Of a stretch of 64,000 nt of DNA, positions 3,001-64,000 are shown piece after piece; the first letter of the stretch is position 1, and each line of letters begins with the position of its first letter. Under the pieces are notes generated by a model. The model did not search any database, had not been told where the DNA came from, and saw nothing but the letters and a program-made list of their open reading frames with translations. This stretch comes from Amphiscolops sp. MND2022 (taxonomy: Eukaryota). The position numbers and the translations under genes are program-made. The stretch covers positions 8,122,001 to 8,186,000 of the forward strand of contig OZ076421.1 in the NCBI GenBank assembly GCA_964187785.1, written 5' to 3'.

Positions 3001-4452
3001 AAGGTTATTGATTTTCCTTAGGTCGACCAAAAGTCTCAGTTTCCCATTCGGCTTCTTCTGTGCGAATATGGGACTGGCATATTTAGAAAATGGCAGTGTA
3101 GTTATGATGCCATATTTGTGTAAAAGGGCCAGTTCGACGAGGATGTCCTCTTTTAAGTTGACTGGGGTGGGTAGACTTTGGCTATATGCGGGCGAATCGT
3201 CCTTGGGGGTTAGTTTGACCGTGAATTCTTCATTCATTCCGATGTCAAATCTGTGTCTGGCGAATATATCATGGTATTCAACTAGGAGCGATTCAATCTT
3301 TTTAATTTCGTGCTGTTGTAGCATCGAGTCCTTCCAGTCAAAGTTGTTAAGAAATTTATGTCGTGACTCCTCATCGTTTTGAGGGTCCAGCTGTTCAGCT
3401 TCTTGTAGATTGCGTAATTCCTGGAGAATTCGTCGTTGGATGGGAGTGTGGGAATCTTCGTCCCCTGGATTCTCTGGGGTTGGAAACCAGTACTGTTCGT
3501 ATTGGTCATTGTTTCTGTTAGCCTTAAGTAGACTACTGACGTAATAGATCGCGTATTCTTCATTTTCGTTGAGAAGATGCCAAGTGGACACCGGGTCTAT
3601 TGGTTTAACGTGTTTCATCTGTTCCGGCGTTAGTACTGAAAAATTCGCTATGTGTAGTCCCTTTTTGAGCTTGTAAGGTTGGTCTGAGAAATTGTTAATA
3701 TGAACGCTGACGTTTCCATTAGTCAACGTGACTATTGCGGCGCAAAATGTGATGTCGCTCTCCTCGTGGAGAAGATCACTGGGTTGTAACACCCCTGTGA
3801 CCGAATTTTCATTATATATCTGAGATTTGATCTCTACTAGAGTACGGTCATTGGGTGGTATTGTAACATCGTCTGGGTTAAGTATAGGTTCCAAGACGTT
3901 TGAATATTTGTGGTCAGCCGTTTTAAGTTGCATAGAGAAATAGGGAAAGTTAAGGATGCCTTGTCGCATGTCCAGGACTGTGTGATTCCTTTGAAGGAAC
4001 ATTAGTCCTATAATGGGGCCGGTCAGTTTTTCCATCACTATAAAGATTTCGTGGAATTCAATGTCTCCAACTTCGAACTTGAGTTCAACAGTGCTCTTTG
4101 GGGTTTCTAATTGACCATTTGCGACCATGATTTGGAATGTTGGCGCAGGTCCCTCTTTGACTATGGATTGAGGCGCTAGTAAGCGTATTTTCCTGAGGTC
4201 TGCTTCTGGTATTGCACTTGACAGAGCTCCAGTGTCGATAAGTCCGTCTATGGTCAATTCCCCAAAGTCCATTGGGAAATATAGCATCCGTTTTTTGTAT
4301 TTAAGTCCGAGGTTCGTTGATAGGGGTATGTATGCCGGTTCTCCCTCTTTGTTTACAAGGACATGTATGGAGGCCGTCTCATCTAGGAGGCCGGATGCGG
4401 CCTGTGTCTCTATTGCATGAGGCTGATCATTGATTGCCTCAAAATTTGGTTG
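1..4452 (-). CDS. pol: E1 Pol (PR-RT-RH-IN), 1484 codons running off the left edge
   Basis: Manual translation gives LIDTGALSS, YASPIFAQKKPNGKLRLLVDLRKIN, AQYVDDIGI, LMTDAS, HGTAHKHPG...CETC, TDKGTAF. The ORF track lists no terminated ORF in this frame, consistent with no stop before position 1. Confidence 0.9.
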
Positions 4453-4875
4453 TCACAGTTCGATGAGTGCCCGGGACAGTGCGTTATCTAGAATCTCAGG
4501 ATCATCTTCATCGTCCGTAGGAGGGTAATCATCGTTTCGGAATTGTAAGTTCTGTTTGTCGTATATGTCATCGTCCCAGTACGGGTCTCTGCCGTACTCA
4601 GGGTCATAGTAGTGAGGGTTATAGTCTTCGACAGTTTGTAAGGGTCGGAATTGGGTTTCAGAGTCTTTCGTGTGGCTATTACGTCGGTATAAGTATGGGT
4701 GGTCACTATTTATGATATATTGAGTTTCAGTATATGCTTCCTCCATCTGCTGCTGCCAGACAGTCGATGGAGTCCCATTGATGTCATTTTGTGATTGCTT
4801 GTAGGTAATGTTAGCAGGGTCTGATATGACGTATTGTCGTATCGACATTCGGTCACATATTTGGAGTCGTGGCAA
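4453..4875 (-). CDS. E1 transframe ORF (Asp/Tyr-rich spacer) in the pol frame, -1 relative to gag, ending at a single TGA
   Basis: ORF track 140 aa. Same frame as pol; entered by a -1 shift at the gag end. Related sequence in E2 (DPDYGCDPY) and E3 (QYTVTDPSN). Confidence 0.75.
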   Translation of the reverse strand: MPRLQICDRMSIRQYVISDPANITYKQSQNDINGTPSTVWQQQMEEAYTETQYIINSDHPYLYRRNSHTKDSETQFRPLQTVEDYNPHYYDPEYGRDPYWDDDIYDKQNLQFRNDDYPPTDDEDDPEILDNALSRALIEL

Positions 4876-4877
4876 AA

Positions 4878-6629
4878 TTAGTTTTTTGAATCAGTCTTTT
4901 TCAAATTGGACTGGTTTGATGTGGATGTGGTGGGCTTTTCGTTTTTGGTACGAGTGCCTTCGTCCTCTGAGGGCTCCGTGTCTTTTGAGGAGTCCTGTCT
5001 ATTTCGTTTTGGACGAAGGTGGGCTCCAGCACCGCGCCAACATTTCTCTGCTGGATGATTGGTTTTGCTGCAGGTGGGACATTCTGGGTAAGTTTGGCGT
5101 TGAGGCTTCTTGCCATTCTTGGCCTCTGATTCTTTCTTCTTTTTCAGTTTTGGGCAATTCTTCCAGAAATGGTCTTCAGCCTTGCAGTATGAGCATTGGT
5201 TATTCTTGTTGGTGTCGATGCCATTGGATAGTAGATTTCGTGCTTTTCCTGACGATGAAGCCATTGTAGCTATTGGCAAGTCATCAGATTCTTCTAATGC
5301 GTTTAATTCGAGTTCTCTTTCTAAATGTGCCACAATCTCCTCGTAGGTCCCGTTTTCCAGTCGGGCCATATTCACCGATCTTTTGAGTTTTGGGGGTAAT
5401 TTAGCATATAAGAGGCTATCGATCATACTCTTGGCGTTCTCCCCGAAGGCTTTCTCGGCACCCTGATTGAGTTCTTCGAGAAAATCGGGTAGTTTCATCG
5501 TGTTGGGATCGAAAATGAGTCTGTGCCACTTGTGCTTGGCTGTGGCTTGGGACTCTGGTTTAACGTACTTGCGGCGAAAAATGACAAGTACGTCTTCCAA
5601 TGTTTGACGGTTTATAGAGTTTATATTTCGGAAGGTTTGCAGGGCCCCTTTTCTGAGCAATGAATGAAAATGATTTATTTTCATTTGTTCAGTCATAGCG
5701 GGTTGCATTTTTATCATTGTATGAAATAAATCTTCAAACAATTCGAATTTCTCTGTTTTGCCGTCAAATGTCATAGGGTTCGTCGTGACTGGTCGAATTG
5801 TCATCGACTGTGGTTTGTTCTGGAGATTTACCAGGACATCTGCCAATCGGTTGATGGGGTCTTGCGACAGTTGGGCTGTAACGGGCTCCGCCACTGGTAG
5901 GGTTGTGTCGAGGGTTGTATCATGCGCGGATTCTTGTCTCTGAAGGTCGGGCTGGGAGTAAATTCGTCCTGTGAGGAATTCAGGAATGTGCTGTTGGGGT
6001 TCGTTAGCTCCTGTCACCATGTAAGGAACAGGGTCCACATGGTCCCTCAGATCGCATGCAGACCTTGAGTCCTTCTTTGTTAATTTCGTATTTGAGCTTT
6101 TCCATACATTTCTCATTCCATCTTCATTTGAGGACATACACGGTCCAGCGCCAGGTTGACTCAAAGGCAAGTTTTCCACCATGTTCTGTATCTCAGGAAT
6201 AATCCTTTCACTTATGGCAGAGCTAATAGCGCTACTGATTTGTGATTGCATTAAATCCATCATTGTTTCCATTTCACGAGACATTCTAGCATTCATTTCT
6301 CCAGACAACATATTAATTGATTCTATTAGTCTACTTTCTCTAACTGGTTCGTTTCTGTTATCAATATCTCTAATCTCATTTTCTTGAGATGAATTTTCCC
6401 TGTTAGGAAATGACCTGAAGTCTTGCGGCCCTTCAGGGACATTAATGAGACTATCTAGCTCTCTTTCTATAGAGTTAGAATTACCTTCGCCTAGCATCAC
6501 GTCCATGTTACCGTAGTCGGACAACATGTCTAACTCTCTCGACCTCCTGTCTTTAGCCTTTTGTTTTCTTGTAGACGGCATTGAAAATATCTTTCCAGGA
6601 GAAAATAAGTAAATTGTTCCTGTGGACAA
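4878..6629 (-). CDS. gag: E1 Gag, 583 aa
   Basis: FDGKTEKFELFEDLF capsid-like segment; zinc knuckles CSYCKAEDHFWKNC and CPTCSKTNHPAEKC. Confidence 0.93.
   Translation of the reverse strand: MSTGTIYLFSPGKIFSMPSTRKQKAKDRRSRELDMLSDYGNMDVMLGEGNSNSIERELDSLINVPEGPQDFRSFPNRENSSQENEIRDIDNRNEPVRESRLIESINMLSGEMNARMSREMETMMDLMQSQISSAISSAISERIIPEIQNMVENLPLSQPGAGPCMSSNEDGMRNVWKSSNTKLTKKDSRSACDLRDHVDPVPYMVTGANEPQQHIPEFLTGRIYSQPDLQRQESAHDTTLDTTLPVAEPVTAQLSQDPINRLADVLVNLQNKPQSMTIRPVTTNPMTFDGKTEKFELFEDLFHTMIKMQPAMTEQMKINHFHSLLRKGALQTFRNINSINRQTLEDVLVIFRRKYVKPESQATAKHKWHRLIFDPNTMKLPDFLEELNQGAEKAFGENAKSMIDSLLYAKLPPKLKRSVNMARLENGTYEEIVAHLERELELNALEESDDLPIATMASSSGKARNLLSNGIDTNKNNQCSYCKAEDHFWKNCPKLKKKKESEAKNGKKPQRQTYPECPTCSKTNHPAEKCWRGAGAHLRPKRNRQDSSKDTEPSEDEGTRTKNEKPTTSTSNQSNLKKTDSKN
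4881..4887 (-). other. -1 ribosomal frameshift heptamer A_AAA_AAC
   Basis: TCA AAA AAC TAA at the gag end; a -1 shift enters the pol frame; same heptamer at the E2 gag end. Confidence 0.8.
6009..6019 (-). other. Primer binding site TGGTGACAGGA
   Basis: Follows ...TTACA directly; identical 11-mer follows the verified E2 5' LTR. Confidence 0.8.
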
Positions 6630-7514
6630 TGTTTGTTGGGTTTACAGTGAATCTTGTACTCTCAGTAAAAAATAACTGAATAACAACCGTATCGTATCAA
6701 TCATTGAAATTGTGGGCTAACTTGGGCATATATATACTCAAGACAGCATGACGTCCGCAATTCTGATGGTCATGCTGCTAAAAATAGCACACAGGCTAAA
6801 AATAGATACATCAGAACTATAAATAGCTACATGACGTCAGCGTGGACCTATATAGGCGGCTAAATCAAAGCGCCTAACAGGGCCACGTTGCATATAGGTC
6901 AAAATGTTCAGATATACAAATTCATGTAAGCAACAGTTTTACATGCAAAATGATTCATGGCGGTCCTACACGGTCTATTGTCGCGAGGAACCATTTAACC
7001 TCATATCATATTAAACAGGGGAAGTAACACTACATATTAACGTTTACATGAGGTTGAACACTCAGTAATACATAACACGTATTTCATTAACATATCAATA
7101 ATAACATCGATTTCATCATATTAACAAATGAGAATACTCATTTAGTCCGCTGGCCGCATAGGGCCTTATTTCTCTAGCAGTAGCACTAGCGACATTTGGA
7201 CAAGTAAGGCCGTTCAGCCATTAAGACAGCATCCGCTTTGTTCTATTTATTTAACAGCAACTCAGTATAGCAACAAAATGCAATTAGTCCGCTTAGGCCA
7301 AGTGACCGTGACGGTCCATTCTGATTAATAAGTGAATGCATTACTACAACTACAAATAAAACAAGATGAGCTATGATTGGCTAATATGCCGTGCGCGGCT
7401 ATGCTAGCTATACTTAACAGGCAAACATTTGAACTCGTTTCCTTTCTGCCTGTCAGTATAGCTTGCTGTCAAACATCAATCATATTACAAATAAAATACA
7501 TAAATTGGTTTACA
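6020..7514 (-). repeat. E1 5' LTR (about 1.5 kb)
   Basis: The PBS-proximal end is CA before TGG. The distal end is inferred from TGTAAACC and could be wrong. Confidence 0.6.
6729..6839 (-). promoter_or_regulatory. Putative LTR promoter: TATATATA (6729-6736) and CRE-like TGACGTCA (6832-6839)
   Basis: Motifs seen about 100-200 nt upstream of the gag ATGs; function inferred. Confidence 0.45.
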
Positions 7515-7680: not shown

Positions 7681-7980
7681 GGACCAGGTACCGGTTAACT
7701 GATTAACCGGTTAATTGAATCCTAGTCGATTAAAAAGTTTCAACCAGTTAGTGCAAAACGAAAAAGTGAATTACAAATGAAAGCTACCAATGCTGGATCA
7801 AGTTTGTAAGCTTTCGGACATGTTTTGATTGAGTTGAAAATTCGCAAAAACTACTTTTTGCACTAAAAGTTCGATTGAATTTAGTTTAGCGATATATCGA
7901 AACCGATTAATGATACTGATAAATCGATTAACCAATTATTTTACACGATTAATCGATTAAGCCAGATTTTCAACTGGTCC
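7681..7980. mobile_element. MITE-like 300-bp element
   Basis: GGACCAG...CTGGTCC termini and subterminal CGATTAA/CGGTTAA palindromic repeats; no TSD found. Confidence 0.35.
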
Positions 7981-8006
7981 ATGGTCTATTTGAACTGCGA
8001 TCAACA

Positions 8007-8567
8007 ATGGATGTAGATTTATTTTCATCCGGGAAAATTCCTCACATTGCAATCTTACTGACCCTTTTACTGTTCACGTTTAGCGTTCATTTGGACTTGA
8101 CCAGACCCTTCTCGGCATACCCTAGTTTACCTAAACCCCTACCGACAGAGATTTCATCGTCCCAAGTTGTTTTTAGAATTAATACAACGTCACTTTTAGG
8201 AGATTCAAAAGGAGCAAATGACTTTCTATCTTTGTGCCACGATTTGATTCAGAATTCAGCAACAGATGAATCGGTAGACAAAGCCATCAACGTGAAAAAC
8301 CACCGATATAGTTATTCCTTACACCATCAGGGGTCAATCTCCAATTCCAATGATTCCTTGGGGTGTGAGAAATATTTCGGGTATCACGGGTATTTCAACA
8401 CGAGAAAGCCAATCAATGACCTGGAAGCAAACTTTTCCATAGCTTTTGGATTTCTCATTTATCATCAGATCGATCAATTCGAACAACTTTTGAGGGCCGT
8501 TTACAGTGCTCAAAACTATTACTGTATTCATGTGGATGATTCGCAACCGAAAGAATTTAAAAAGGCC
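8007..8567 (+). CDS. First coding exon of a beta-1,6-N-acetylglucosaminyltransferase (core-2/I-branching, GT14)
   Basis: N-terminal TM anchor; motif FSIAFGFLIYHQIDQFEQLLRAVYSAQNYYCIHVD; phase-0 GTAAGT donor at 8568. Confidence 0.88.
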
Positions 8568-8879
8568 GTAAGTGAAATTGATTTGTCAAAAATTAAGCTA
8601 GTTTCCTCTCATTACTAATGAAATACAGTGATGACGAAAGGTACAGTTGTCACTCGGCCCTTCAAGAAATAAAACGCGACTGATTTGCGGAGTTATATAA
8701 TTGTATCATTATGAAATTTTAGTCACCATTACATCAAAACTATAAAAGACATTTCACGTCATAAGAAAAAAAAAGCTGTTCAGTTTAACAGAAATACGCC
8801 AATCCAACTCTTCGCGCCATTATTTTTTTCTTTTCTAACTCTGAACTAGTCTAGAGCATGGCGCATATAAAAATAGAAA

Positions 8880-9959: not shown

Positions 9960-10309
9960 TGAGCTGTTAAAGACTTGAGAGATCTGAGATCTCAGTTAGT
10001 TCTTTCATTTGTAGTCTTACGGAGGGAAGACATTTCAACAGATCAGATTCCAATTTCTCTTTTTTTCTGATTATATAACTTCAGTAATTTCATCAATGAT
10101 TACAGGGATTAAATATATTTCTAATCATTCTAAACTGACTATAGTAAAATTAAATAAAAATGATGTTATCACTTAATGTCAGCAATCTAATAGTGAAGTA
10201 TTAACCTCGAAATGAAGTGACATCTGTCTTATTATCTAGTTAGAGAAAGTGGGTGCCTAGGTTATAAAAAACTTTGAAAATACTTGAGGTCATGCATCAT
10301 GGCATCACA
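9960..10309 (-). repeat. E4 3' LTR
   Basis: Homologous to about 24565-24904 (shared gggaagacatttcaacagatcagattcca and gaggtcatgcatcatggcatca). Confidence 0.85.
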
Positions 10310-10686
10310 ATCAACCGGGAATTTTTGAAATTTGTAATTATATATCTGCCTTTTGGAAGTGAGGAGTTCCAAAGTTTTTGTTTCAGATGTTGTCTGCATG
10401 ATTTTTGTTCTGGAAGCGTATTTAAGGAGTCAGAACAACATGTGACGATTTGATGTTTTATGAGACTGACGGTTCAAATTGGTGGAAAAGTTTCAGTTTG
10501 GAATGACTAACAGTTTTTTTCGAGTTATTATTGACAGCTTGTTTTTTACTATTTGGTAATTTTTCGTATCTGCTATCGACTTGTTGAAAAATTTGATGTT
10601 CTTCAACGTGAATTGTTCGAGGTTGAAAACTTTTGAAGTTGAAGAATTATTCTCAACAGTTGGTCAATGAGTTATGAACAAACAAT

Positions 10687-11257: not shown

Positions 11258-11713
11258 TTAATTTTTGTAGAATGGGTGTTTATGTTTGAACTCAATAGGG
11301 TCAATTTGAGATTTGTAATTTTCAATTTTTTGGTGGTACCCAAAATCTTTGAGGACGTTATCAAGCGCGTCCATAGCTTCTGGAAACGCGGCGTGAAAGT
11401 ATGGATCTTTTTGGGTAAATTGAGAGTTTAACACAAAGACAGTGTCAGAAATCGTTTCGAAAACTGCAATTTGGGGTCCTTTAACATGAATGCGATAGTA
11501 TGGTTCAAACGGAATACCTTTTTGACCAAATTGAGAAACATTGTATAGAACTTTGAGGAAGGAACGGCGAGTAAAATGCGAAATTTTATTTTGGTTTGTT
11601 TCCAATGACAATGTGAAGGTCATTGTATGGAAGATGGCGGCTTTAAGTGTTTGAGATTTTGTAGGTGACCTGATAAGTTTTTTTTCTTTAGGTTCCAGAG
11701 AGGAGCCAACCAT
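11258..11713 (-). CDS. E4 accessory ORF, 151 aa, unknown function
   Basis: Open, globular-looking ORF, sense to the element, between env and the 3' LTR. Confidence 0.55.
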   Translation of the reverse strand: MVGSSLEPKEKKLIRSPTKSQTLKAAIFHTMTFTLSLETNQNKISHFTRRSFLKVLYNVSQFGQKGIPFEPYYRIHVKGPQIAVFETISDTVFVLNSQFTQKDPYFHAAFPEAMDALDNVLKDFGYHQKIENYKSQIDPIEFKHKHPFYKN

Positions 11714-11887
11714 AAGTTGAGAGAGTGAAACAGTTTAGCATAGGTTCAAGAAAGAAAAACATAAAAATGTTACTTTTATACATATATGTCACGAGTGTCC
11801 AATAATGTTCCAAAGGAGGCAAAGTTTAAGAAACTTGTATTACCTGAGTGTAGATTTATTGAAGATTAGTCGAGTTAAAAAGAGTAG

Positions 11888-12325
11888 TCATTGAGTCAAG
11901 AGCAGATTGTATTGCTTAAGATGATTATGTATACGTTGTGAATCTAAATCAAGAGATTGTAGGAGTTTATGTGTTCTGTCACGGATGCAGTGTACGAGAT
12001 ATGTGAGAGTGGTGATGAAAGAGTCAGACGGCTTTCGTTTGTATGGGTCTAACAGTTGTGTAATATCGCGAAGAGTACGATTATTAAGTATTGAAGAAAG
12101 TTTTTCAGAAGTATTGCGAATGGGTGATGTATGTTCAATAGGAGGAGGTTTATGTTCAGAATTGTTTTCCGTTTGTACCAAACAGAAAAAGACTTCAGCA
12201 GAAATGAAAAGTAGTTCGTTATAGTCGTGGAATTGTTTTGAAAGAGCAGTATAATCGGATGTATCTTTGTCATCTAACGGAGAAGAAACAACTTGCAACT
12301 GAGAGGAAGGAAGAGTCAGTTTCAT
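11888..12325 (-). CDS. E4 accessory ORF, 145 aa, helical, unknown function
   Basis: ORF track; same strand and A/C/T bias as the element. Confidence 0.5.
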   Translation of the reverse strand: MKLTLPSSQLQVVSSPLDDKDTSDYTALSKQFHDYNELLFISAEVFFCLVQTENNSEHKPPPIEHTSPIRNTSEKLSSILNNRTLRDITQLLDPYKRKPSDSFITTLTYLVHCIRDRTHKLLQSLDLDSQRIHNHLKQYNLLLTQ

Positions 12326-12329
12326 CCGT

Positions 12330-13240
12330 TTTTAAACCGTAGATTGATAGGCGGAGAAATTTAAACTTTAGGGTAAAGATTTTTACACCATTTTCAAGTC
12401 AATATTGTTGGGGAAACACTGTCTTTGAAGCAAAGGATGTAAAGAAATCTTGATTTTTGTAATAGAGCCCGAACGTAAAGTCAGTCGCATGCAAATAGAG
12501 AGAAGTCAATTGTGCTTTAAAAGTGAATGTGTTATGTGAGAGGATTGGTATTAAATGGTCATCGCGGTTTGTAGAAAGTGAAGATTTGGAAAGTAAAAGG
12601 AGAATATTTGGATAGGAGGTAGTGGTGTTCCATGTGAATCATCATGAGGAGGTTGATCTTTGGAGGAGGTGGTGTTATGTTCGGTTTGTTCAACTTTTCG
12701 GAGGCATGGGTGTGTAATTGATCAATAGATTCAAGAAAGAGGAAAGGCGAGTTGTTAAAGAGAGGGTGAGTAGTGAGATCAGAAGAAGATTGTTCTAATT
12801 GTGTTTGAAGATCAAGTTGTGCTGGTGTCATTTTGAAATTATTTTATAAAAGAGCAAAATTTACAATAACGAGTAGCTTTCTCAACTTTTTGCGGTGGAG
12901 GTGCCAAAACACGGACTTTGGGAGTTGAGTTTTGAGGGCAGTTAATAGTTATTGCAATGATGAGAGTTATTTCGCGCGGAGGATGGAGCTCAATTTTTTG
13001 AACATATTTTGAAGTTAAGTTGCGACAAAGAGATTTTTGTTTTTTTTTCAAGTAATCAAGCGTTCTGCACAAAAGTTGATGGCAGAATGACTGAGTTTAA
13101 ACAGATGGTTGGGGAAAATTGCTTTGGAATATCTTTTGACAGGGCTATCAATGTCAGTATTTACAGGAGTGTTATCGATGGGATAACTATCAGGATTTGT
13201 ATTAACAATTGAATAATTTGGTGATGTTGGGTTTTTTACT
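12330..13240 (-). pseudogene. Further decayed E4 accessory ORF(s)
   Basis: ORF pieces 12559-12831 and 12839-13072 plus interrupted frames. Confidence 0.35.
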
Positions 13241-13259
13241 AGTGAAGATGAAAGTTAGA

Positions 13260-15721
13260 TATGTGACTAGTTTGTGATGAAGGAAATGTTTTTGTTTTGG
13301 AAGTGATTTAAATCCTGCCATTTTGTTAGGTATATTTGGACGTTTTGTATAAAAAGGTGGAGATGAAATAACACCAGTGGGATTAGGGGGATGATTTGTT
13401 TGATCATCAGAAATAGAAAAATCATCTAATGGGTTGTCAGGAGGAGGTGATTTAGAAGCTTTAATGGCAAATTTGAGTCTTTTGTGATGAGTATCATTTA
13501 GGTCAATTACCATTTCAGCTGTAAGAATATCAAAGGAACTACGTGCTATAGAACTAAATATAGTAATGTTTTGTTTAAGATTGTAATTAATTTAAAGTGT
13601 TTTTATACAGTTTGATGATGAGAGTGATGGTTGCTTGTATGAATATAAATGTAGAAAAGTATATTCCATATTATGTTAGAATATAACATGGATATCCGAA
13701 TATTGCGATAAAAACTATCAGAAACAAAAGTAGGTGTAAAAAGAGGAGTAAGATTGATAAGTTTATCATATAAACCAATACGGAATGTATTATAAGCATT
13801 TTAATGAGGTGAATTTGCATCATAATCAGGCGTATTGGAAGAAATAGAGAATAACTAAGAGCTTTTCCTAAGAGTTGCAGTGTAGAGTCATGGTGTTTTG
13901 AAATTGAAATTCAATTCCAAAATTGTTCTAATACTGCGTTAGAGTATATTCCAAAATCTTGAGCTGTGAGAGTATTAGGTTCTATTGTAGTATTTATCTG
14001 AGAAGGTGTGAACAGGAGTGGTGGGTTTCTTTTATTAGGTTCTGGTCCTAGAATGCAAAAACCTTGATCATCAGAATCATTATCAAGTTCAATAATATTC
14101 TCAGGGTTTCTTATAACATGCAATGGGAGTAGCATAGTCATAGGTTTGTCTTATATTTTGGTCTACATACATAAGGGTGTCTGCAAATTGTATTGGTATA
14201 CAATCGAAGCACCGATCAAATTTGTACAAAGGGGAGAGAAAGTGTGGCAGTCATAAAGCCAAGCAGTTGAGCCTTCGACATTAAAGAAATTACTACGATT
14301 TCCTGTTGAGAGAAATCCAGCAAGTTGAGGATTTTGTACTGACATTGCAAGTATTGTAAGAAGTTGATTTCGTTCTAATGCACATAATGTATGAAGTGTG
14401 TTCAATTCTTGTACTTTCAATGAATGGAAAACATTGTTTATAGTGTAATCAATTTTTGTATTCATATGTGCGTCATAGTGAACTGTAGCAAAGTTATTTA
14501 AAACATTAAATGCAGAGAATATAAATTTGTTCATAGAATTGTTAAATACAATTTTGCCAGAGATATTTTCGTTAATTTCAGATCGAGGGTTTTGTTGTCC
14601 GTATGCATGTTGAAACCATCTGTATACGTTATAAAAAGGTCAGAGTATTGTGTAGAGTATAGAGGTTCAGGTTTACCAAAAACTGTTTGAGCATTTGGAA
14701 GTACTTCAAAACGTGAAATATTAGGATTGTGTGGGTTTTGGGTGTGTGGAGCATGTACATACGGATATGAGGTTCACACCAGATGTCATATCAGAATTCT
14801 TTGAATGTGAAGAACGTACAAAAGAATCTGTTTCGATCCAGTAGCGATCTTTAATTTCTGTCATTCGTCCAATAAGTCTTGTAATGTAAAGATTAAGCAA
14901 AAATCATCGCTAAACCAAACAAAAGTAAAAAGTTTTAGTGGTTGGTTTACACAAACCATCTGCAAAATAGCATGGAAGGATATGTCAGTCAATAATCATG
15001 ACGTTTCCAGTGTCACCATAGGTCAGTTTTATTTCAGAATTTTTTAATCACCAGCTAGCGAGGTTGACTTCAAATTGATGATGGACAGGAGAGTTGTGAT
15101 AAGGGTTACTGGACGGATCATAAATCCAATCTTTATATGCATGCAAAAAGTGAAGGTGCCTGTGTACATTTTATTTAATTGGTATACAATAAAAGGAGTT
15201 TGATATTGTTCTAACTTCTCTTTGGACTAATGATCTTCCAATAGCGTGCAAAATTTGTTGTAATGTAAATATATCAATATTTTGTTCTTTGTTCGATTAG
15301 GAAGTCTAATAATGTTTTTACATTCAAGAGGGTCAAGTGTAACAGGAAGTGGCATTGGGTTATAACTCTAGACGGTTCTATCAACACGTCGATATTCAAC
15401 GGAGCCTTGGAAACAAATTGTTCATTCCTATTTGGCGTAAGCAACACATTTGAAAGATTTATTTTGTTAAGCTTTTGCTCTAACATAGACTCGGGTTTTA
15501 ACATTAGCGTGTTGTATATTAGAAGGAGCTTCTCTGCATTGTTTGACATTTAACAGATTGAATTGTCTACGATTATGTTGTTTTTTGCAATCATAGTTAA
15601 AAAACCAGAAAGTTTCTAATATTTGGATCGTCTGAGCGTCTGAGGGGAGATAATTTTCTGTATTAGTTGGTGTAATAGGTATAGTGGATGTGAAAGTTAG
15701 AATGAATGAATGTAGTATCAA
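13260..15721 (-). pseudogene. env: Envelope glycoprotein remnant, gB/chuvirus-like class III fusion type
   Basis: Hydrophobic N-terminus; YDCKKQHNRRQFNLLNVKQC; LCALERNQLLTILAMSVQNPQLAGFLSTGNRSNFFNVEGSTAWLYDC; C-terminal TM (FIAIFGYPCYILT.YGIYFSTFIFIQATITLII); Pro-rich tail. Confidence 0.75.
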
Positions 15722-16899
15722 ATTGAAAATTTAGAGCATAGTATGAAAGTTAGAAGGTAGTTGTCAATTTAAGACCTGAGTATGGATTATAAAATACGAT
15801 TCAGCCATATCTTAAAGTTGGAAGTTGGGATCTCTTTCAAATTCACAATGAGTGACTTCGAAAGAAGCAGTAGTTTTATGTTTTATCTTTGAAACTTCAA
15901 ATACTGGAAGGAGTTTAAACCTTTTTGGTTTACACCTTGAAAATTTACTTAAATTTCAAATTTTAGTTCTAAGTTAGAAGTTTGGTGTCTTCTGAGTTCT
16001 GTTTATTTTCTTTTGTTCGATAGTGAATCGTTAGTTGTAATTAAGCGTTCTGTAAGAATTGGGAAGCGTAGATTGTTTTTTGGATCGTATATATTAGTGC
16101 CGTCAACTCGTATTTGATAGTATGCAAAGTTAGGAGGTCGAGAATGTTCTGCAGTGTAATATTCAGGTAGTCTAATATGTGGAGGAAGAGGAGTGGGGAT
16201 CAAAATTCAAAAATTAGATTTCCTGAAAGAAATGCGGTTTGAGCGTCAGTGGAAGGTAATGAACAGTATCCAGGCCAGATGTAAAATATGATTGTGGAAC
16301 ACATTCTGAAGAAGGTGTATAAGATGATAGAAGTTGTGCGTGTTGCCTAGGGAGTCTTGATGCAGAATTGCTTGAAAGAGCAGAAAAATTGAGTGTTGAA
16401 GTGTCGATACTAAGTTTTAGTGTAGGAAGATTTCTTTCTGAGGTTATATCTGTGATGAGGAACAAAAAGTGAATTGGTAGATTCCTGTGATGGTGTATAT
16501 TCAAAAGCGTTGTCCAAGAGGTTTGATAGTAGATGATTTTGTAAAAGGTTTTAGTGGAGGATATTTTTTGAAGTTGTTGTTCTGTTCAATTCTGATGGTA
16601 GATGTAATGATGGTGTATATTCAGTATCAAGGAAGTGTACAAGATTCGGTTGGGGTTGAAGTCTAACAGATTTGATAGATGTAGGTTGTTTATAATATAC
16701 GTATCGGTCAACAAATTCTGGGTTTGGTATATGTACTAAAGTTGATAAGTTGGTGATTGTTGAGATTGAGAACGAGGAGTAATTGGAATTTCAGGAACGA
16801 GTGGTCTACATATATGAGGTGACGATGTAGATGTTATAGAAGATGCATCAGTAAATTGTCATCTTTGTCTTTTGGAAGGAGTTACAGGTGTTACATCAC

Positions 16900-19800
16900 G
16901 AGTTTGAGTAGTAGTGGTGGTTTGAGATTCAGTATTAGAAGAAAGGCATGGAGCAGAAGGAGATGTATCAGAAGAAGAATACAGGATGATAGTTTGGTGA
17001 AATTAAGTTTAAGGTTGACTTTGTTTTTTGTTGAAAACTAAGTTCAGTTAGGGCTACGTCTCTGATGTTTCAGTGTTATCAATTTCCACTTAGCTCAGTG
17101 AGGTGAAAGATTTTCTAAAGTTTTGAAGGCGTCATGAAAAGACGATAATCTTTCTTTGGTTGTTGTCTCAAGTTATAATGAGTTTTAGTATTTCTGTCAA
17201 TTTTGGTTTCAGGTAAAAGAGGTTGATTTTGAGATGGGTGACGTGATTTGTCGAGAGATAACTTGCGGTGATGGGTTTTAATTATAGTTTTGGAAGGTGA
17301 GTTGTCATTCATTTTGGTGAGTGGAATTTTTTGAGAAACGATTAGTATTGAAATTTGGTTTCGAAGATGGTAATATGGGTTTTGACAGTGTAGAGGTAGT
17401 AAAATCAACTTGTGATGACTTTTTGTCAGATAGGGATTCAACAGAACTAAAAGAGACGGAATCACTATTTGCATATTTAATTGGTTTTGGAATGTCATGA
17501 TGAGTTGAGTCTGAAAAGCGCATGAAATTTCGAGAAGAAGGGTACAAAACTGGTTCTTTTGGATAACAAGGGATTAAGTGGTTTCTAAGAACGTGAAGCG
17601 TGGAACCATCTTGTTAAAGAAATTCATATGTAACATCAGTTAATCTTTTACGTATTTTGTATTGTCCAATCCGAAGGCGTTTAGGTTTGTCAGAAAAATG
17701 AACGTGAAAGAAATTACGTTTGGGTTCAGGAGTTCCAAGAGGAAGAGGAAGTGGTTTACCTTCATGATAAATTTTTGTAATGTATGCGTGAGAGTTATTG
17801 TTTCTAGGAGCATGTTCATATACTGTAGAATAAATTTGTAACAACGCGGTTTCTACTGCAAGAAGCTATTGCGGAATAGCTTTGGAAAAAGTTTTGTAAA
17901 AAAATGGGTTTGAATCCGTTTTATTATAATGTGAGTGTTCTGGAAGTTGGGAGCAATATTTTGAGATTCATATTTTTGACGTGTTTCGATTGAGGTTGAG
18001 ATCAAAAGTAAGTAGAATCCTTGGTCGTGTGTGAAAAACAATTTCATGAGGAGAAACATTGAGTTCTGAAAGGGGTTGTGAATTGTGTGCGTGAGCATGC
18101 ATGTGGACTTGAAATGCCCAGTCTTAGGAATGTTGTGGACGAACATACGGAGATGAGTTCCACGAGTTCTGTTCTGTACTTCTACAAGGCCATTTGCCCA
18201 AAGAAAATAGGCTGTTCTAGGAGAATGTTTGATTCCCAAGAGTGTAAAAAAATGTGCCATTTCATTATTTTTGTATTCTGGTCCGCGATCAGTAACAAGG
18301 TAAATAGGTGGACCAAATTTGGTAATCCAGAGATGTAAAAGAGATTTTACTGCAGTTTTAGCGTGATTTGATTTGATTGGAACTGTTACAACAAAATGGT
18401 TGAAAGCGTCAATGATAACGTGACTGTGAGATTTATGTTGTCAAGGAGGATTAATAGGTCCTTTTGTATCCATAGAGATTCTGTAATTAAAAAAGGAGCG
18501 TGTTCTGAGACGCATTGAAAAGGAGCAGTTTGTATTTTTATTTTGAAGTGTTTATTGCGTTGACATTCAAGACAGTTATGTATAAAAATGGATAACCACT
18601 TTTCAAGATAAGGTATATGCCAGTTTTGAGAAAAAGTATGATAAGTGATTTTGTTACCTGTATGGAGGTGTTCATGAAGTTTGTTAAAGACAGTTTTAAA
18701 CATTCGAAAAGGCAGACAGGTTTTATTAGTACTGTGTATTGTATCTGGAGTTGCATTGGGGTGTGTTTCAGAGGAAAATGTATTTTTTGTATAAAAGATA
18801 ATAAGATTGGTAGAATCATCAATCAAAAGTTGTGAAAACCGATTTTAGTTTGCATGTGGGAAAGGAATGCCAGTAATCAAGGGTGTAAGAAATTCAGGTT
18901 TGAAATTCAATACGAGATAGCCAAGAGTACACAGTTCTAAGAACAGGAACTTGAGTTTGTTGTTGTTGTTGAAGTTTTTTGAGATCTAACGTGTAGTCAT
19001 CTGGAAGGAAGAAGCCTTGGAAATAATTCTTGTATTTGAAGAAGGATGTATCATAAAGGGTATGATTTGTGTACAATGTGTAGGAAGTTTAGAATTTGTT
19101 TTACCATCTATTGCCGAGGTTTATTCTGATGTAAAAGTACACTTTGGTTTTTTATTGTAGAAAAATTTTTTTCGTGTAAAGAATTATCAGTAATAAAATT
19201 TGAGTTGGGTTTTGGGATTCTAGAATATATATGGTCTTCTTCGTCGCGTGTATTATCAGTATCATTAAGTAAAAAAGATTGTTGGTGAAATGGTTTATGA
19301 ATCATTTTTAGAAGTGTTTTAAATTTTGTTTGGAAGAGGTGACAGATTTGAAAGAAAATGAGGTTAAAGGTTTAACAATAATATCATTGCCTCTATCATT
19401 TATGCCTATGGAAAAATGGTCTGTACCATAATTGGCGAGTGTTGGATGAGAGGCATGTTTTTGATGTGGTAATACATCTTCATGTTTGATTGAATAATGT
19501 TCGGGTTTGAGTGTTATATCTTGTAGTATTGTAAAGTCAATTTAAGGTGGCCGTTGTTTATGTTTCAATTGGTATTTTGTAATTCAGGTTTTCTAAAAGA
19601 ACGATTTAACATATCGGCAACAGAATATTTTTGCCAGGAGTGTGAATAATTTTAAGTTTAGAGAATTTTGTTAGTTGCAGGTGAGCTCTGTAAAATCGTG
19701 GACTAAGATTCCCTTTTTCTATAAAACAATGTAAAAGAGGTTTATGATCAGTGAAGACGTGTATCGGATGTGGGGATCCAATAATGATGAATTCATAAAG

Positions 19801-20100
19801 TTGGAGAGCAGATACTATACCAAGGAGTTTACAGTCAAGATAGGAGAGTTTTTGTTCTTTTGAATTTAATATACGAGAGTTGTAAGGTATTACTTTCATT
19901 TTATTCTCTTAATTAAGTTGGAAAAGGACAGCAACTAATCCAATAAGTGAAGCGTCTACTGTAATAAAAACTGTGTGTTGTGTATTTGGAATTGTAAGTT
20001 CTGCTTCAGAAACAAGAATGGATTTTAATGTTTGAAAAAGACGTTCCTGTTCATCGGTCCAACTCCAAGATGTGTTTCCATGTAAAAGATCGTAAAATGG
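16900..20100 (-). pseudogene. pol: E4 pol remnant: RT connection, RNase H, integrase, Ser/Thr-rich tail; PR and most of RT missing
   Basis: TVDASLIG, VFTDHKPL, HEHLHTG...CLECQRNK, ANGLVEVQNR. Confidence 0.85.
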
Positions 20101-23100
20101 TTTGTGGTTGAATTGTATTAAGTTTATTTTTTGTATTGGAATGTGAGCGAGATCTAAAAAAATTTAGAATCTCCTAGTCTTGAAGGTGCTCTAAAAGAAG
20201 ATATGTATCTTGTAAAAATGTTATCTCTAGAATATGGGCGTGATCTATATCTGTGAAGAGAGTCACATCTATAAGGTGATTTGTTTGCTGATCTATAAGG
20301 AGAGCGATAAGATCGCGATTCTCTTTTGTAATTATCATTTCGTGAACGAGTGTATTGTGGAGGAGTAGTACTTTTGGCATAACAAAAACGATCTCTGGAT
20401 GTAGAGCGGTATCTGTTCTGTGAGTTGTTGTTTTTATTATAATAATTTATTCGTGATGTACTTTTACATCGATATCGTGTATCATATTGTTTTGTTCTAT
20501 CACAAGAGGGAGAACGTGAGCATTGTACAAATGATTTCTGAGATTTTAAATTAACATTAGCTTCTATTTTGTCTTCGTCATCTCGTTGTTTTTCGAAACA
20601 AGCTGAAATGGAATGGTTTGTTCTGTGACAATAAGAGCAATATTTTTGGTAGGCAGGTTTTGTTTTTGTTATTTGGGTCACGAGGTTGTGTAAACAAAAA
20701 TTATTCTTGTTGTGATGAATCAAGAGTTTGTGTTTGGAATTGTTTTGTAATGTTATTCACTTCAGGGGTAACAACATGTGTTCAAATTTTATCATTTGCT
20801 ATTATACTTTCAGCATCAACGAATGTTACTAGTGTATGAAAAGGAATAGAAGGTTCTAAAATAGTAGTGGATGTGGGTTTCACTTGCCATTTATTAGCAA
20901 AATCTTTGAGTTTTTTTGGAAGTTCTTTTGTGGAAATTTAAATACAATTCAAGTATTTTGTGGAATCATTTTCGTTGCAATAGTCTTTTTCAACTAGTTG
21001 TTGAACTTTAAGTGCAAAATGGCGAACTCCTTCATTGTCCTTTTTAACTAGATTAAGAGTTTCTAGTTGAGCCAAATAGGCGCTTTTCTGAGTGGAAAAT
21101 TTTTGAATAAACGATTGTACAAAAGCGTGCCAACCATGTTTATAGCTGCCGTTTGAACAAATGTACCTTCTGAGAGCTGTACCTGTTAGGGAACATTGTA
21201 TAAATGGGTATAAATACATGGGTGTATAAATTGTATAAATACATTCTTCTTGCGTGTCAAAATCTAAATTCATGGTCAGGTGTAGGTTGTAAACCTAGTG
21301 AAAATGTAATAAGTGCCTCAATAAGTTGTAAATATTCTTCTGATGTATAATTATGATCTGAACCATCAAAGGATTTGATAGGTTCAGAAAATGATGAGAA
21401 TATATGTCGGATTAGAACATGTAGATTGAGGTATTGTAGATGGAGGTACTGGATTGTAGGTAGGTGTTTTTGAGAGGTAGATGGGAATATATGTCGGATG
21501 TGAACATGTAAATTGAGGTATTGTAGATGGAGGTACTGGATTGTAGGTAGTTGGTTTTGAGAGGTTTGGAGGTATGTTTTGTGGGTTTGTAAACGGTGTG
21601 TATGTATATTAATGTGAGGGTTTGTTGTTTGACGTTTGAATTCTGTGTTTTGTGTCATATTTTGTGTTATAATGGATGACTGAGATGTCGAAAAGGGATT
21701 AAAATTGTTTTGTTGATTATTTGCTGTTAAATAGTGTTTTTTTGGGATTTGTGATTGGAAGACTATACGAAAGTGGTTCACTAAGAATGGTTTGTAATGG
21801 TCTAGAGAGATTCCTAGAATTATATGGTTGGGTAATATAATGGATTGAAGAGTTTTAACAGTTGAACCAGGTTGTTTATTTTGTGATTCTGTGTTTTGAG
21901 CTGAAATGTATGATAAAGTTTGTTGATAAAGGTTGTCTTGTTGAAGTAATTGTTTGAAATTGTTCTTCAGGTCGAGCTTGAGTAGAATATTGTGGCGGAC
22001 GAAGAAGTGCATCAACTTTCGAGGTGATGTTTGTTGCGTTTGAAATGGTTGAGCTACATTAGTGTTTGATATGGATAATATGAATGTATTATCTTGATTT
22101 GGGTCATTATTTGAGTTTTGAGTTATGTTTTGTACGGGAATTTGTAATACGTTTGAATCCTTAGTTATTGTAACACTTTGTGAATTATTGGTATTTCCAT
22201 CGGAGAGATCCGAAGCATTTTGTTTTGTAACTGTATCAGAAGTATCTGCTAAGTTCTATAATATAGTTAGGTCTTGTTGTTGATCGTGTGGTATTTTCTC
22301 TTGTCCTGGTGGTTGTTGGTTTTGGAATATGCCTGTATTGTCATCAGGATTAGGCTGTAAAATATTTTGGTTGGTGTCATGTTGTAAAAAATTTTGATCA
22401 TTTTCGTCAAATGAAGTTTCGGAAATGATCTTAGAAGTAGGTATGGTCTGTCGTCTGATGTTCCAGAATGTTCTACTATAAAATTATCATCAAGTGTTAT
22501 TAGTTCAAAATAAGGTGTATTGAATGATGTAATATTTCTATAGTGTAAATGTTTATTTTGATTCCTAATTATGAATGGTAAAAAATCAGTTTCTGTTAAT
22601 ACTTATGGAAAGTTGATATATGCGTTTTGATCTTGTTGTTCCCAAAGTAATTGATAATTGAATCGAAAACATTTTAAAAGAAATTGGGAAGAAAAGTTGA
22701 TTTGTGGGACTGTATCTCCGTTGAGAAAAAAGTTCTGGAAGAATTTGTATTGGAAATGTTTAATTTATAATATATCTTGTTGTAGCCAGTAGTGAGTATT
22801 GTCCTGTCGTTGTATCTTTGTTTCAAGATCTGGTACTTCAAAGTAATCATGTTTTTTTGAGACTTTCCAAGTGAGAAGGGAGATTTGGTGGTAACTCTAA
22901 ATTTTCATTGTGTTCTATAAATTTATCCATGTAAGTAATAAAAACATCTTGAATAGATAGCCTTATACTTTGTGGGTGGATTGTTTTGTAAAAAGTTCCT
23001 GTGTTTATACCATGGACTGGATTAAAAACAATTTGGAAAGGAGTTTGTTTGTGATGGTGTGTTTTCTAGTGTTTTGTATCGAAGCTAATATAGATAAGAG

Positions 23101-23300
23101 TCGCAATGTTCTCTAATCAAAGGAATAGTATGTTTAATATAGGCTTCTGTTTCAAAAGAAAGAGGATTTGTGTACTGAAAGATGATGTTATGTAAAAAAT
23201 GGTATTACATTTTGAGTAAAAGAACGTTTTTGACGTTGATCAGATGATAATAAAAACGGTGTAGGAAGCATTTATCTGATTCATATTGATCTATTCTATA
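20101..23300 (-). pseudogene. gag: E4 gag remnant with CCHC knuckle, Arg/Ser-rich tail and an 87-bp tandem duplication (21401-21574)
   Basis: FDGSDHNYTSEEYLQLIEA; CSYCHRTNHSISAC; RSTSRDR/RSPYRS repeats. Confidence 0.75.
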
Positions 23301-24564: not shown

Positions 24565-24904
24565 CTAGCTATTTCTACTTTCACAATTCTCTGAGTTCTC
24601 TGTTAGGTCTTTATATCTTAGTCCTACGCAGGGAAGACATTTCAACAGATCAGATTCCACTTCCTCTTTCTTCTGATTATATAACTTCAGTAATTTCATC
24701 CAAGTATAATTCTAATCATTCTAAAGTGACAATAGTAAGATTAAATATTAATGATGTTATCACCAAATGTCAGCAATCTAATAATGAAGTATTAACTTCG
24801 AAATGAAGTGACATATGTCTTAATATCTAGTTAGAGGAAATGGGTGCCTTTCAAGGTTATGCAAATACTTGAAATTACTTGAGGTCATGCATCATGGCAT
24901 CATA
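24565..24904 (-). repeat. E4 5' LTR
   Basis: Homologous to 9960-10309; inner boundary approximate; PBS not recognisable. Confidence 0.75.
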
Positions 24905-25638: not shown

Positions 25639-27518
25639 TGTCGCGACCCCAGAGGTGTCACGGAATGCAAACAACAAGAGGAACGCCTGAGGAGGGAAGC
25701 GAGGAAATCGACCAGAGTAGGTCAGAAATGCCATAACAAACCTAAAAAGAAAAAACCAACAAACAGCCTAATATTATCTAAATAACATGTAAATGTGCAT
25801 TTACTACCATCGTGCTGTACCTGAAATACATAGATATGTAAATAATAATATAATAATAACAGGCGCAGTATTTGCTCAGTCAATTAACCAGCGCGTTGTT
25901 AATTCGATCAACGCGTTGACTGGGGACTTGCCTCAACGGCAGTAGTAATTTTAAATAATTCAGTCTGTATTGACCAATCAGAAATGAGCGTAGTTGAAGC
26001 TACTAGTGAATTCGGGTTAACGTCCCAGGCAGCAATACCAGTCGACTGAAGCTGGGACGCACGCTCAGTCGCACTGCCTGAATATACTGATGCAACCAAT
26101 CGACGCTAAGTTTTAAATGAAATTTCACGACTTAAAAGAAGTCAAGTACCAAGAGGGTGTCCAATGAACACTTGATGTATTCAATGTTTTTATTGTATTT
26201 AATTCACCTCGTGTTTGAGTCAACCTCCCAGGCAAAGTGCTAAATTTCCTAAGTAAAACGACAGCCAGGGTGGACGACCCAAACATTTGAGTAACATATA
26301 ACATTTGTTATCTCATTCGCGAAGCTGTCCTCTTTAGACGTTTTGATTGATAATATTATAGTGAAATAAACCCCCCAGTGCTAATATTCACCTCACATGC
26401 ATCGTTTAGTTCAATAACAAATGAGTCAACCACCTTGTCAACTGGCCAGACGACCCAAAATGAAACGCGTTGCCTGGCGTTCATCCAGGATTTTAATTGT
26501 TTGTTTCAGCCTAAAACACCGATTAACGGCTATAATTGTCTGATTAAAAGAAAATCAGTGCTGTTAATTTGTAATACCGAAGTATTTTCCTGGTTTGTTT
26601 ATTAGTAAAGTTTGGGAATATTCGAAGTAAATTTCACTTTCCTTTCCCGCTTCAGTAGCTAGATTCTTGAACTTTCAGTGCCAACTTTGGTTCGGCGTCT
26701 TGAATTGGCTGGAAATGAAGAAGGAAGTAACGCGGAATCGGGACTTCGGCAGGAAGTTGATTCCCACTTTTCATTTAAAGTGAGTTGACGCTGAAAGCCG
26801 AGTCCCGAGGACCTAATTTGGATTTTCCTGCCTCGGATTGACGCCGAGCTGAACGAGGTGTGAATTCACGCGCGGGATTTATCCCGCGTGTCTAGCGGAA
26901 AGTATATATACCCGAGGCGGGCTAAGGAGAGGACCAGTTTTATGTTGTGATTTTACGAACCGTTCGCCTGTAATTTTGAATTTTATTTTCATAACGTTCT
27001 TTTACTGACAATTATTGCTCTTTTATTTTGTTTGTCAAAAATCACTGCATGTGTACCATCCGATGTTTGGATACTATTTGTTTCATCAACTGTCCACGCT
27101 TGGAAATAACTTGAAACTATTAATCTTCAGAAAAGACCTAATTCAATTGTTCCAAGCCTGAACACTTTCTTGAAAATGCCTGAAAAGACTCAAAAATGAA
27201 AATTAAGAAGTGATCAAACTACCAGTCAGGAAGAGGTTGAGAGTTACAACCACCCGGATGACGAAAATGTCAGTCTTTCTGAGCAGGTTTTCGAGGATTT
27301 TTCTAGCAAAGTTGAACAACGTTTGTCAAAACGATTGAGAGATACCGAGTTTGGACAAACAGAGATCTTGAAGTTGATTGAGAACCTCACGTCTAAAGTA
27401 GATAGTCTTTCAAATCCTGCCTCTGAACAGTGTAGCTCCGCCTTGCGTTTTGAATTTGACACCGATCCGGTGAATGACTCAGGAAATGAAAATGCTTTTA
27501 GGAACGTCGGTGCCAACA
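25639..27518 (+). repeat. E2 5' LTR (1880 bp)
   Basis: 25677-27518 aligns with 39158-41012; ends CCAACA before the PBS. Confidence 0.92.
26871..26910 (+). promoter_or_regulatory. LTR promoter: 18-bp palindrome CGCGGGATT(T/A)ATCCCGCG followed by TATATATA
   Basis: Seen in all three LTR copies (26871, 40365, 47760); perfect in the latter two. Confidence 0.55.
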
Positions 27519-27529
27519 TGGTGACAGGA
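27519..27529 (+). other. E2 primer binding site TGGTGACAGGA
   Basis: Immediately after the LTR end, which is defined by comparison with the 3' LTR. Confidence 0.88.
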
Positions 27530-28582
27530 TTTTCAGCGAACCAGCAAGAAAACATCCACCAAAGATGATCAAACCTGCCGCCTCCAAACCAGAGGTATCC
27601 TGATGACTTCATCGATGAGCTTCTACAATCGTTGCAAACGGCAACCACCCACAACACAGGAATCCCCAGGCTACCCAAAGCCATGTCCACCACGATGACC
27701 ACATTCGATGGGAAAGCAGACAAATTCGAACTCTTCGAGGACCTCTTTCAAACGAGCCTGAAAGTGTACCCCAACATCGCAGAAGAGGAGAAGATCCACT
27801 ACTTCCACTCCCTCCTCCGGGGCGAAGCCCTACAAACATTCAGAAATATGACTGATGCCACCCGTGAACACCTCAATGACAACCTGGCAGGTTTCCGCCG
27901 CAGATATGTCCGACAACAATCTGTGCCAACGACACGCTGCAAATGGGAAAACCTATCTTTCAATCCGAGCCAACAAACCTTCCCCGACTTCCTAGAGCAG
28001 TACCAGAAGTTGGCCCAGGAAGCGTACGGAGAAGACGCCCCCAAGATTATAGAAACCTTATTCTACGCTAAGATGCCGCCCCACCTCAAGAGGGTCTTAA
28101 ACCAATCCCGACTCGAGACGGAATCCTACGAAACTATGGTACAACACCTCGAGAGGGAAATTGAACTTAACGGTTTGGCAGCGACCGACAGGCCACCAAT
28201 TACAGGGGTAAACAACCTCGCACTAAGCCTACCAAAAACAACAAGAGAAACCTCCCAAAACAACAGGAACATGCTTCGTGTGCGGCAGCCCAGGACATTT
28301 ATTACGAAACTGTCGCAAAACCAACAGTGACAAACGATCCCAGAAAAACCAAAACCCAACTGAAACTACACCATGTAAAACATGCGGAAAAAGGAGCCAT
28401 GAGACCAAAGATTGCTACTCAGCTGCAAACTGGGCAAACCGCCCAACGTTGTTGAAAACACCCAAAACAACACCTCCAAACAATATCCCGATCCCTCAAC
28501 AATCACAAGCTACCCCAATGCAACAGCCGCAATTTGCACAAATGTCTCAACCACCAACTGTTGCGCAATCAACAAACGAATC

Positions 28583-28589
28583 AAAAAAC
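28583..28589 (+). other. -1 frameshift heptamer A_AAA_AAC
   Basis: TCA AAA AAC TTC TAG; the -1 frame reads KKLLEPRL, like E1 KKLILPRL. Confidence 0.75.
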
Positions 28590-28595
28590 TTCTAG

Positions 28596-41012: not shown

Positions 41013-41081
41013 ATGACCTTTGGTGCAACTAATCAGCTATCCAATTTCAATTCCTCCCATTCATTTCAACACTCATAAACT

Positions 41082-46964: not shown

Positions 46965-46967
46965 GCA

Positions 46968-48406: not shown

Positions 48407-49099
48407 ATGACCTTTGGTGCATTTAATCAGCTATCCAATTTCAATTCCTCCCATTCATTTCAAAACTCATAAACTCCCTCTAAAATTGCTGGGTCGGTGT
48501 GTGAGAAACAAAGTTGTTAAAATAACAATGGATTTCAAAATAACTTGGTCGAAATACAATGCTAAAGCTTTGAGATTCATTCATGAACAAATACGGATCG
48601 GCGTTTGAGCCTGCAACGGTTCAGTGAACACAAAATGGCAGCTATAATAAAGTAATTACATGAACTTTAGCACCGATTATGCAATGTTTATCAATAGTGC
48701 GTACAATTAAATGTCGATCAAATTGATTATTTCAGAACAAAAAGTCAGCTGTCAATCAATATGACATGTCAGTCATTTTTACATGTCAAATAAATTCAGA
48801 GGGCAAAAGTTTTGTGTTTTTGTTTTATGGTTATTCAAAAATGCGAATCGGTTCGCCCGAACCGTCTTTTGGCGGGTTCGAAAACTCATCTATAACGAGA
48901 AGGTCATTGTTCATACCGAAGGCATTGGTATTTAAACTAGGTGAAACACGATTTTCATATTTTGATGACAAACAATATTCAACATTCTCCGCCCCGGAAA
49001 GTGTCGGCTCAAACAAAGGTACAAGTTTTATCAGGGGTCTCGTATAGGTTCGAAATTCGAAGTCAAAATTGCGGATCGTGCAATCCCGTCTGAACCATA

Positions 49100-63874: not shown

Positions 63875-64000
63875 CTTGGAGGTCATGTAGATGATTTGTG
63901 TAAATTAAATTGAAAAAAGTCTAGTTTTACGGACTGTTGAGAACTTATAGTTGCATAAAACCCAGGCCAGAGTAGAAAAACACGTGCTAATGAGCAATAT

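Follow-up and report, generated by a model that had tools for sequence, protein, structure and literature searches.

The stretch of DNA analysed here, hereafter the window, comprises 64,000 nucleotides of the Amphiscolops sp. MND2022 genome (contig OZ076421.1, positions 8,122,001 to 8,186,000). On its minus strand lies a decayed 14.9-kb copy of a Ty3/gypsy long terminal repeat (LTR) retrotransposon that carries the pseudogene of an envelope gene, env. On the explanation that our analyses make very probable, the dead env sits in an aged and partially deleted member of a family that maintains the gene under purifying selection in its younger copies, where it likely encodes a class III fusogen that likely serves the entry of virus-like particles into neighbouring or germ-line cells.

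An envelope pseudogene in a decayed Ty3/gypsy element

Read from its 5' end to its 3' end, the window copy contains the following features:

24590–24904, minus strand: 5' LTR, aligned part (274 of 309 columns the same as in the 3' LTR), with inner end and primer-binding site decayed
20102–23186, minus strand: gag part of gag-pol, broken, with N-terminal domain, capsid and CCHC knuckle (tblastn with a relative's gag-pol, 32–77%; PF03732 at E 0.0019, under the cut-off)
20102–20127, minus strand: deletion junction, with protease and reverse transcriptase (RT) gone, about 690 codons (residues 1027 and 1714 of the relative abut)
19317–20127, minus strand: RNase H and start of the bridge to integrase, broken (PF17917, E 4e-12; 69–77% to the relative)
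17118–19040, minus strand: end of the bridge and integrase, broken (PF00665, E 3e-12; PF17921, E 2e-8; tblastn with the relative)
15753–16987, minus strand: remnant of ORFX, an AUG-less accessory frame between integrase and env (31–69% to the relative's ORFX)
13111–15808, minus strand: env pseudogene, assigned to the PF24664 (chuvirus/gB-like) family via its relatives (tblastn, the relatives' Pfam matches and a tree)
14229–14639, minus strand: longest stop-free env piece, containing the CxLER...NP..AG helix (68–78% to most matches in its own genome; nests in subfamily A)
11862–12831, minus strand: remnant of ORF4 with an internal deletion (pieces at 41–74% to the relative's protein of about 447 residues)
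11291–11662, minus strand: remnant of ORF5, a 150-residue protein in subfamily A (59%, E 2e-42)
9960–10309, minus strand: 3' LTR, TG...CA (termini as in young copies)

With an open-frame relative as the tblastn query, the env pseudogene is recovered at a combined E of 0.0 and 31–63% identity per piece, and nearly all of it falls within the interval 13260–15721 to which the initial annotation had assigned an envelope gene. It stands 3' of the RNase H and integrase remnants, inside the LTR pair at 9960–10309 and about 24590–24904. Aligned to five open-frame relatives, it retains 75–77% DNA identity and has accumulated 12–13 in-frame stops and 26–31 insertions or deletions that are not multiples of three. 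The three motifs by which the gene had been recognised all occur on the minus strand, each in a different frame. The helix motif CALERNQLLTILAMSVQNPQLAG (CxLER...NP..AG) was found at 14384–14316, and a hydrophobic stretch resembling a transmembrane (TM) segment, as had been proposed for the C terminus, was found by hydropathy at about 13667–13608. The N-terminal motif is likewise present (15595–15536), but it reads YDC-x8-F-x-LL-x-V-x2-C, with a spacer of 8 between YDC and F where 6–7 had been claimed.

The two LTRs of the window copy differ at 35 of 309 aligned columns (83% identity by blastn with gaps counted), a divergence of about 11% that, set against 0–1.7% in young copies, marks this copy as an older member of the family. 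Its flanks, AAAG and ATAG, agree at three of four bases and are probably a decayed 4-bp target duplication. An internal deletion near 20110 has removed protease and RT. Neither the window env, read with X at stops in all three frames, nor its stop-free piece matched anything in Pfam (0 matches in each case). Because the pseudogene is too broken to be scored alone, its family assignment is taken from its relatives, and the window copy is itself capable of none of the activities proposed below.

The envelope probably belongs to a chuvirus/gB-like family

Two open env frames from the same genome both match PF24664 (Monjiviricetes_fusion) above the cut-off, at E 2e-21 and 3e-25. The same model is matched at or above the cut-off by 18 of 18 relatives and by 61 of 82 aligned homologues. 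An env profile retrieved 2,967 representatives at E 0.001 among 1.84 billion, so the family is a broad one. Fourteen ectodomain cysteines are conserved in 87–100% of the alignment rows that cover them. By hydropathy, the proteins of all three subfamilies defined below have one 19-residue TM-like stretch near the C end (1.4–1.7) and a weaker hydrophobic 13-mer at the N terminus (1.6–2.4). The combination of PF24664 with this cysteine and hydropathy pattern fits a class III protein of the chuvirus/gB kind better than an F-type one, in keeping with what the initial annotation had proposed. We thus consider it likely that the open frame of about 900 residues folds as a class III fusogen related to that of chuviruses and to gB of herpes simplex virus (HSV).

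Monjiviricetes also take in F-bearing viruses, which leaves some room for the PF24664 match to mislead and for the protein to have an F-type fold, akin to baculovirus F or the paramyxovirus proteins, or some other fold. Several observations make this very unlikely. At E 0.01, none of the 82 alignment members matches a model of gypsy env or of the F proteins of baculoviruses and paramyxoviruses (nor one of herpes gB), a furin-type R-x-K/R-R site is present in only one of eight copies, and no internal hydrophobic stretch resembling a fusion peptide was detected by hydropathy. Chuvirus-type glycoproteins have for their part been described as gB-like (PMC13524379, PMC7642597).

The backbone is of the Ty3/gypsy type

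In the relatives, gag-pol is a single frame that encodes gag (PF03732, with a CCHC knuckle), a protease motif, RT with YIDD, RNase H and integrase with an SH3 tail. Its domains match Ty3/gypsy-type Pfam models (PF17917, PF17919, PF17921, PF24626 and PF03732). The RT, which is deleted in the window copy, was read from these relatives, and the best PDB matches of RT-RNase H are to Ty3 (E 9e-35 and 3e-34), ahead of the caulimovirus and foamy virus enzymes. By its domains, the element is a Ty3/gypsy LTR retrotransposon and not a BEL/Pao one; the initial annotation had called it a Gypsy element.

Chuvirus-like envelopes are known from BEL/Pao elements (PMC7642597), and the order RT, RNase H, integrase is common to both groups; a BEL/Pao element of the Anakin/Tas kind could therefore be entertained, as could an env that had entered the element as a separate insertion. 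We regard both as extremely improbable. No BEL/Pao Pfam model is matched by gag-pol at E 1, which agrees with the Ty3/gypsy models and the Ty3 structural match, and env occupies the same place in the 3' stretches of 14 of 14 fetched copies across three subfamilies.

RNase H and integrase are separated by a bridge of about 330 residues, long enough for an extra domain, that matched nothing in Pfam or PDB. Between protease and RT, the gag-pol of all three subfamilies also contains a conserved insert of about 130 residues, again with no Pfam or PDB match. By eye this insert resembles a dead dUTPase-like domain.

Young copies keep open envelope frames

A search of the host genome with the stop-free env piece gave 6,143 first-look candidates, of which 150 were scored. 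The initial annotation had suggested a search for intact copies; of the 150 matches, 36 lie in open frames of at least 905 residues. The copies fall into three subfamilies (A, B and C). Between subfamilies the env proteins are 54–60% identical, and env proteins 97–99% identical recur among dozens of copies. Exact env motifs of 18–19 nt were counted at 1,168 places for A, 43 for B and 352 for C, with 0 for reversed controls; these are minimum numbers of places bearing env, among which there may be duplicated haplotigs. In an IQ-TREE tree the window piece falls within A with an SH-aLRT of 100, and the three subfamilies unite in one clade (100) far from other homologues, in a quick search of 34 rows in which the window row fills 16% of the columns.

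Fourteen copies, selected for open env, were fetched (8 A, 3 B and 3 C). LTR pairs were recovered in five of the eight A copies (98.3–99.75% identical, one partial) and in all three B copies (98.8–100%); none was found within the fetched stretches for the remaining three A and all three C copies. Young LTRs are about 400 bp long in A and about 340 bp in B and are flanked by 4-bp target duplications, and full elements measure 17.9 kb (A) and 18.8 kb (B) from LTR to LTR. The family has thus multiplied recently and is more than a fossil, its sister copies having LTR pairs 98.3–100% identical. The placement of the target duplications (3/3) indicates that B LTRs end in TG...TA and not TG...CA. In one A copy, ORFX and the 5' half of env are internally duplicated in tandem.

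The primer-binding site matches the 3' ends of host tRNA-Met(CAT) and tRNA-Val(TAC) over 11–12 nt, and since the two host genes share their 3' acceptor end either tRNA could prime. The host tRNA loci were found with a looser pattern, a stricter one having returned none, and five of ten loci were called by ARAGORN. No polypurine tract precedes the 3' LTR in the window (10310–10325) or in young A and B copies. A short motif containing CCCGGT stands before the 3' LTR in both subfamilies, in place of the polypurine tract, and plus-strand priming therefore looks atypical.

Four 3' frames are under purifying selection

The relatives share the gene order gag-pol, ORFX, env, ORF4, ORF5, and all four frames that follow gag-pol are under purifying selection. 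Ratios of non-synonymous to synonymous substitution rates (dN/dS) were computed pairwise by the Nei-Gojobori method, with dS near saturation between subfamilies. For env they are 0.08–0.10 within A (three pairs), 0.15 within B and 0.15 within C, and for integrase within A the value is 0.08.

ORFX is open over 387–422 codons in four of eight A copies, 477 codons in all three B copies and more than 470 codons in two of three C copies. It lacks an ATG in the open A and B copies and in one C copy, the other C copy having one internal ATG. Identity across subfamilies is 35–42%, dN/dS is 0.11–0.43, and in the C-terminal domain synonymous codon changes outnumber non-synonymous ones by 38 to 7. The env ATG lies 1–2 bases past the ORFX stop in B and C, where stop-restart coupling would be possible, and in A the frames of ORFX and env have 56 nt in common. 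No usable splice joint was found in the contigs of three sequencing runs.

ORF4, of about 447 residues, is whole in six of eight A, two of three B and one of three C copies, with 30–47% identity across subfamilies and dN/dS of 0.07–0.29 where dS is finite. ORF5 is 150 residues long in A, where one pair shows 68 synonymous against 28 non-synonymous changes, and it differs between subfamilies. For none of the three accessory proteins did Pfam or PDB yield a match, or Atlas a convincing one. For ORF4 the best PDB hit is at E 0.16 and Atlas gave no usable match; the C-terminal domain of ORFX has no match in PDB, and in Atlas it leads weakly to DUF5696 clusters at 0.90–0.92 with low recognition (1724). 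Homologues of ORF4 are found among ENA proteins at 34–96% identity (among the best 120 of 234 and the best 120 of 566 matches). No related locus was confirmed in viral contigs or metagenomes, and none was found in phages.

A candidate route of spread between cells

From the biology of Ty3/gypsy elements and errantiviruses, a young copy would be reverse transcribed from a tRNA primer in Gag particles and would integrate with a 4-bp duplication. Its env would be expressed through a subgenomic or spliced RNA; once secreted, the protein would have the C-terminal helix as its anchor and would assemble into trimers. As a trimeric fusogen it could then carry particles from cell to cell within the animal, as in Drosophila errantiviruses, most plausibly from soma to germ line. 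Since ORFX lacks an AUG, it is most likely joined to a transcript by splicing, as a 3' exon, on the model of CERV in Cer1 (PMC10309623). The accessory proteins likely aid the family's replication or spread and may act as regulators or as antagonists of host defence. Infectivity, which the initial annotation implied in speaking of a once-infectious endogenous virus, we infer from the selection on env.

Selection on env indicates a function and not which one, and receptor-blocking roles have been proposed for chuvirus-like glycoproteins (PMC7642597). The protein could accordingly be genuinely gB-like and no longer infectious, kept for intracellular budding, syncytial spread or a block to re-entry, in a family that moves only in germ cells. 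We consider this unlikely, though less so than a misjudged fold or backbone: the whole ectodomain, its 14 cysteines and the TM segment are kept in three deeply separated subfamilies at a dN/dS like that of integrase, which fits a fusogen in use.

Several points weigh against a selected class III fusogen in infectious particles. Copies for the dN/dS comparison were chosen for their open env frames, and gag-pol is unbroken in only one of the 14. The class III assignment, probable as it appears, draws on one Pfam family, PF24664, which we take to model chuvirus-type G and whose match covers mainly the central 200–240 residues of env. Searches of PDB with a single env sequence and with the profile found no solved gB, GP64 or G chain at E 10. 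ORFX has no clear splice acceptor, with one weak site among five copies.

Other features of the window

Two further, related Gypsy elements occupy 1–6641 (minus strand) and about 27500–33300 (plus strand), with 65% DNA identity over 1.6 kb. In the first, pol is open over a long stretch and gives a weak dUTPase match (PF00692, E 0.00055, under the cut-off). Between two retroelements, at 7953–8618 (plus strand), lies an exon-like frame of a host core-2/I-branching glycosyltransferase (PF02485, E 2e-8). A 7.4-kb unit is tandemly duplicated at 39573–54329 (98% identity) and bears a weak integrase trace. Directly after a run of N, 58107–63877 holds a tandem array with a 1,421-bp unit in four copies and a partial fifth (about 99% identity). 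The mitochondrial genetic code of the host is table 5, which under the standard codes is that of a bilaterian invertebrate and rules out flatworms, echinoderms, tunicates, sponges, ctenophores and cnidarians.

Comparison with known elements

The initial annotation had implied that a gB-type env beside a gypsy pol would be surprising. This pairing is documented, HSV/gB-type env being about as common as F-type env in this position across metazoans, in the 'ancient errantiviruses' of Chary & Hayashi (eLife 2026; PMC13524379). The present family resembles these elements in its Ty3/gypsy pol, its GAG-POL-ENV order, its LTRs with a tRNA primer site and its multicopy state, and in a chuvirus/gB-related env with conserved cysteines and no conserved furin site. 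It differs in length (17.9–18.8 kb, against at most 12.6 kb in part of supplementary file 1), in its three extra selected frames (the survey's text mentions neither accessory frames nor splicing), in its primer 10-mer, which is absent from the published table, and in having more than 1,500 env copies. The ancient errantivirus group (PMC13524379) has a 'mini' domain after RNase H; the bridge of about 330 residues found here has no match in Pfam or PDB. Xenacoelomorpha are absent from the groups listed in that survey.

Anakin, a mosquito BEL/Pao element, carries an envelope of the same kind, modelled on type B glycoprotein trimers (Dezordi et al., 2020; PMC7642597), on a backbone that differs from the Ty3/gypsy one found here. 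Extra frames, lying either 3' of env or between it and pol, have been described in the bdelloid ORF3 elements (PMC5408684) and Burro (PMC6431247), which have a different env type, and CERV of Cer1 offers an earlier example of an accessory regulator made by splicing (PMC10309623). Compared with the cargo of these complex LTR elements, the accessory proteins described here match no named family in Pfam. Troyka was ruled out as an assignment, given TG termini and 4-bp duplications here against CG and 3 bp there (PMC12440569).

In the open-licence literature we found no five-gene layout with a gB-type env, though the figures and remaining tables of the errantivirus survey (PMC13524379) could bear on length and layout, and no description of acoel LTR retrotransposons with env or of the present family. 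The distinctive features are thus size, copy number and accessory genes, the pairing of env and pol being already known. A more ambitious reading, which we put forward tentatively and hold to be rather less probable than its negation, is that of a complex invertebrate endogenous retrovirus. It would be a still-multiplying gB-type errantivirus lineage of 18–19 kb and five genes that has radiated to more than 1,500 copies with env, in a group of animals outside the published survey, and in this lineage ORFX would be a spliced regulator (compare Cer1 CERV and retroviral Rev) and ORF4 and ORF5 new accessory families.

As the pattern is already published, the env type adds just one more case. The family matters because the spread of gB-type errantiviruses outside Drosophila is stated to be unknown (PMC13524379). 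With three recently multiplied, env-keeping subfamilies in one genome, the question of spread becomes observable by expression and microscopy alone. If the accessory genes are regulators or defence antagonists, retrovirus-like complexity would have arisen in a Ty3/gypsy lineage.
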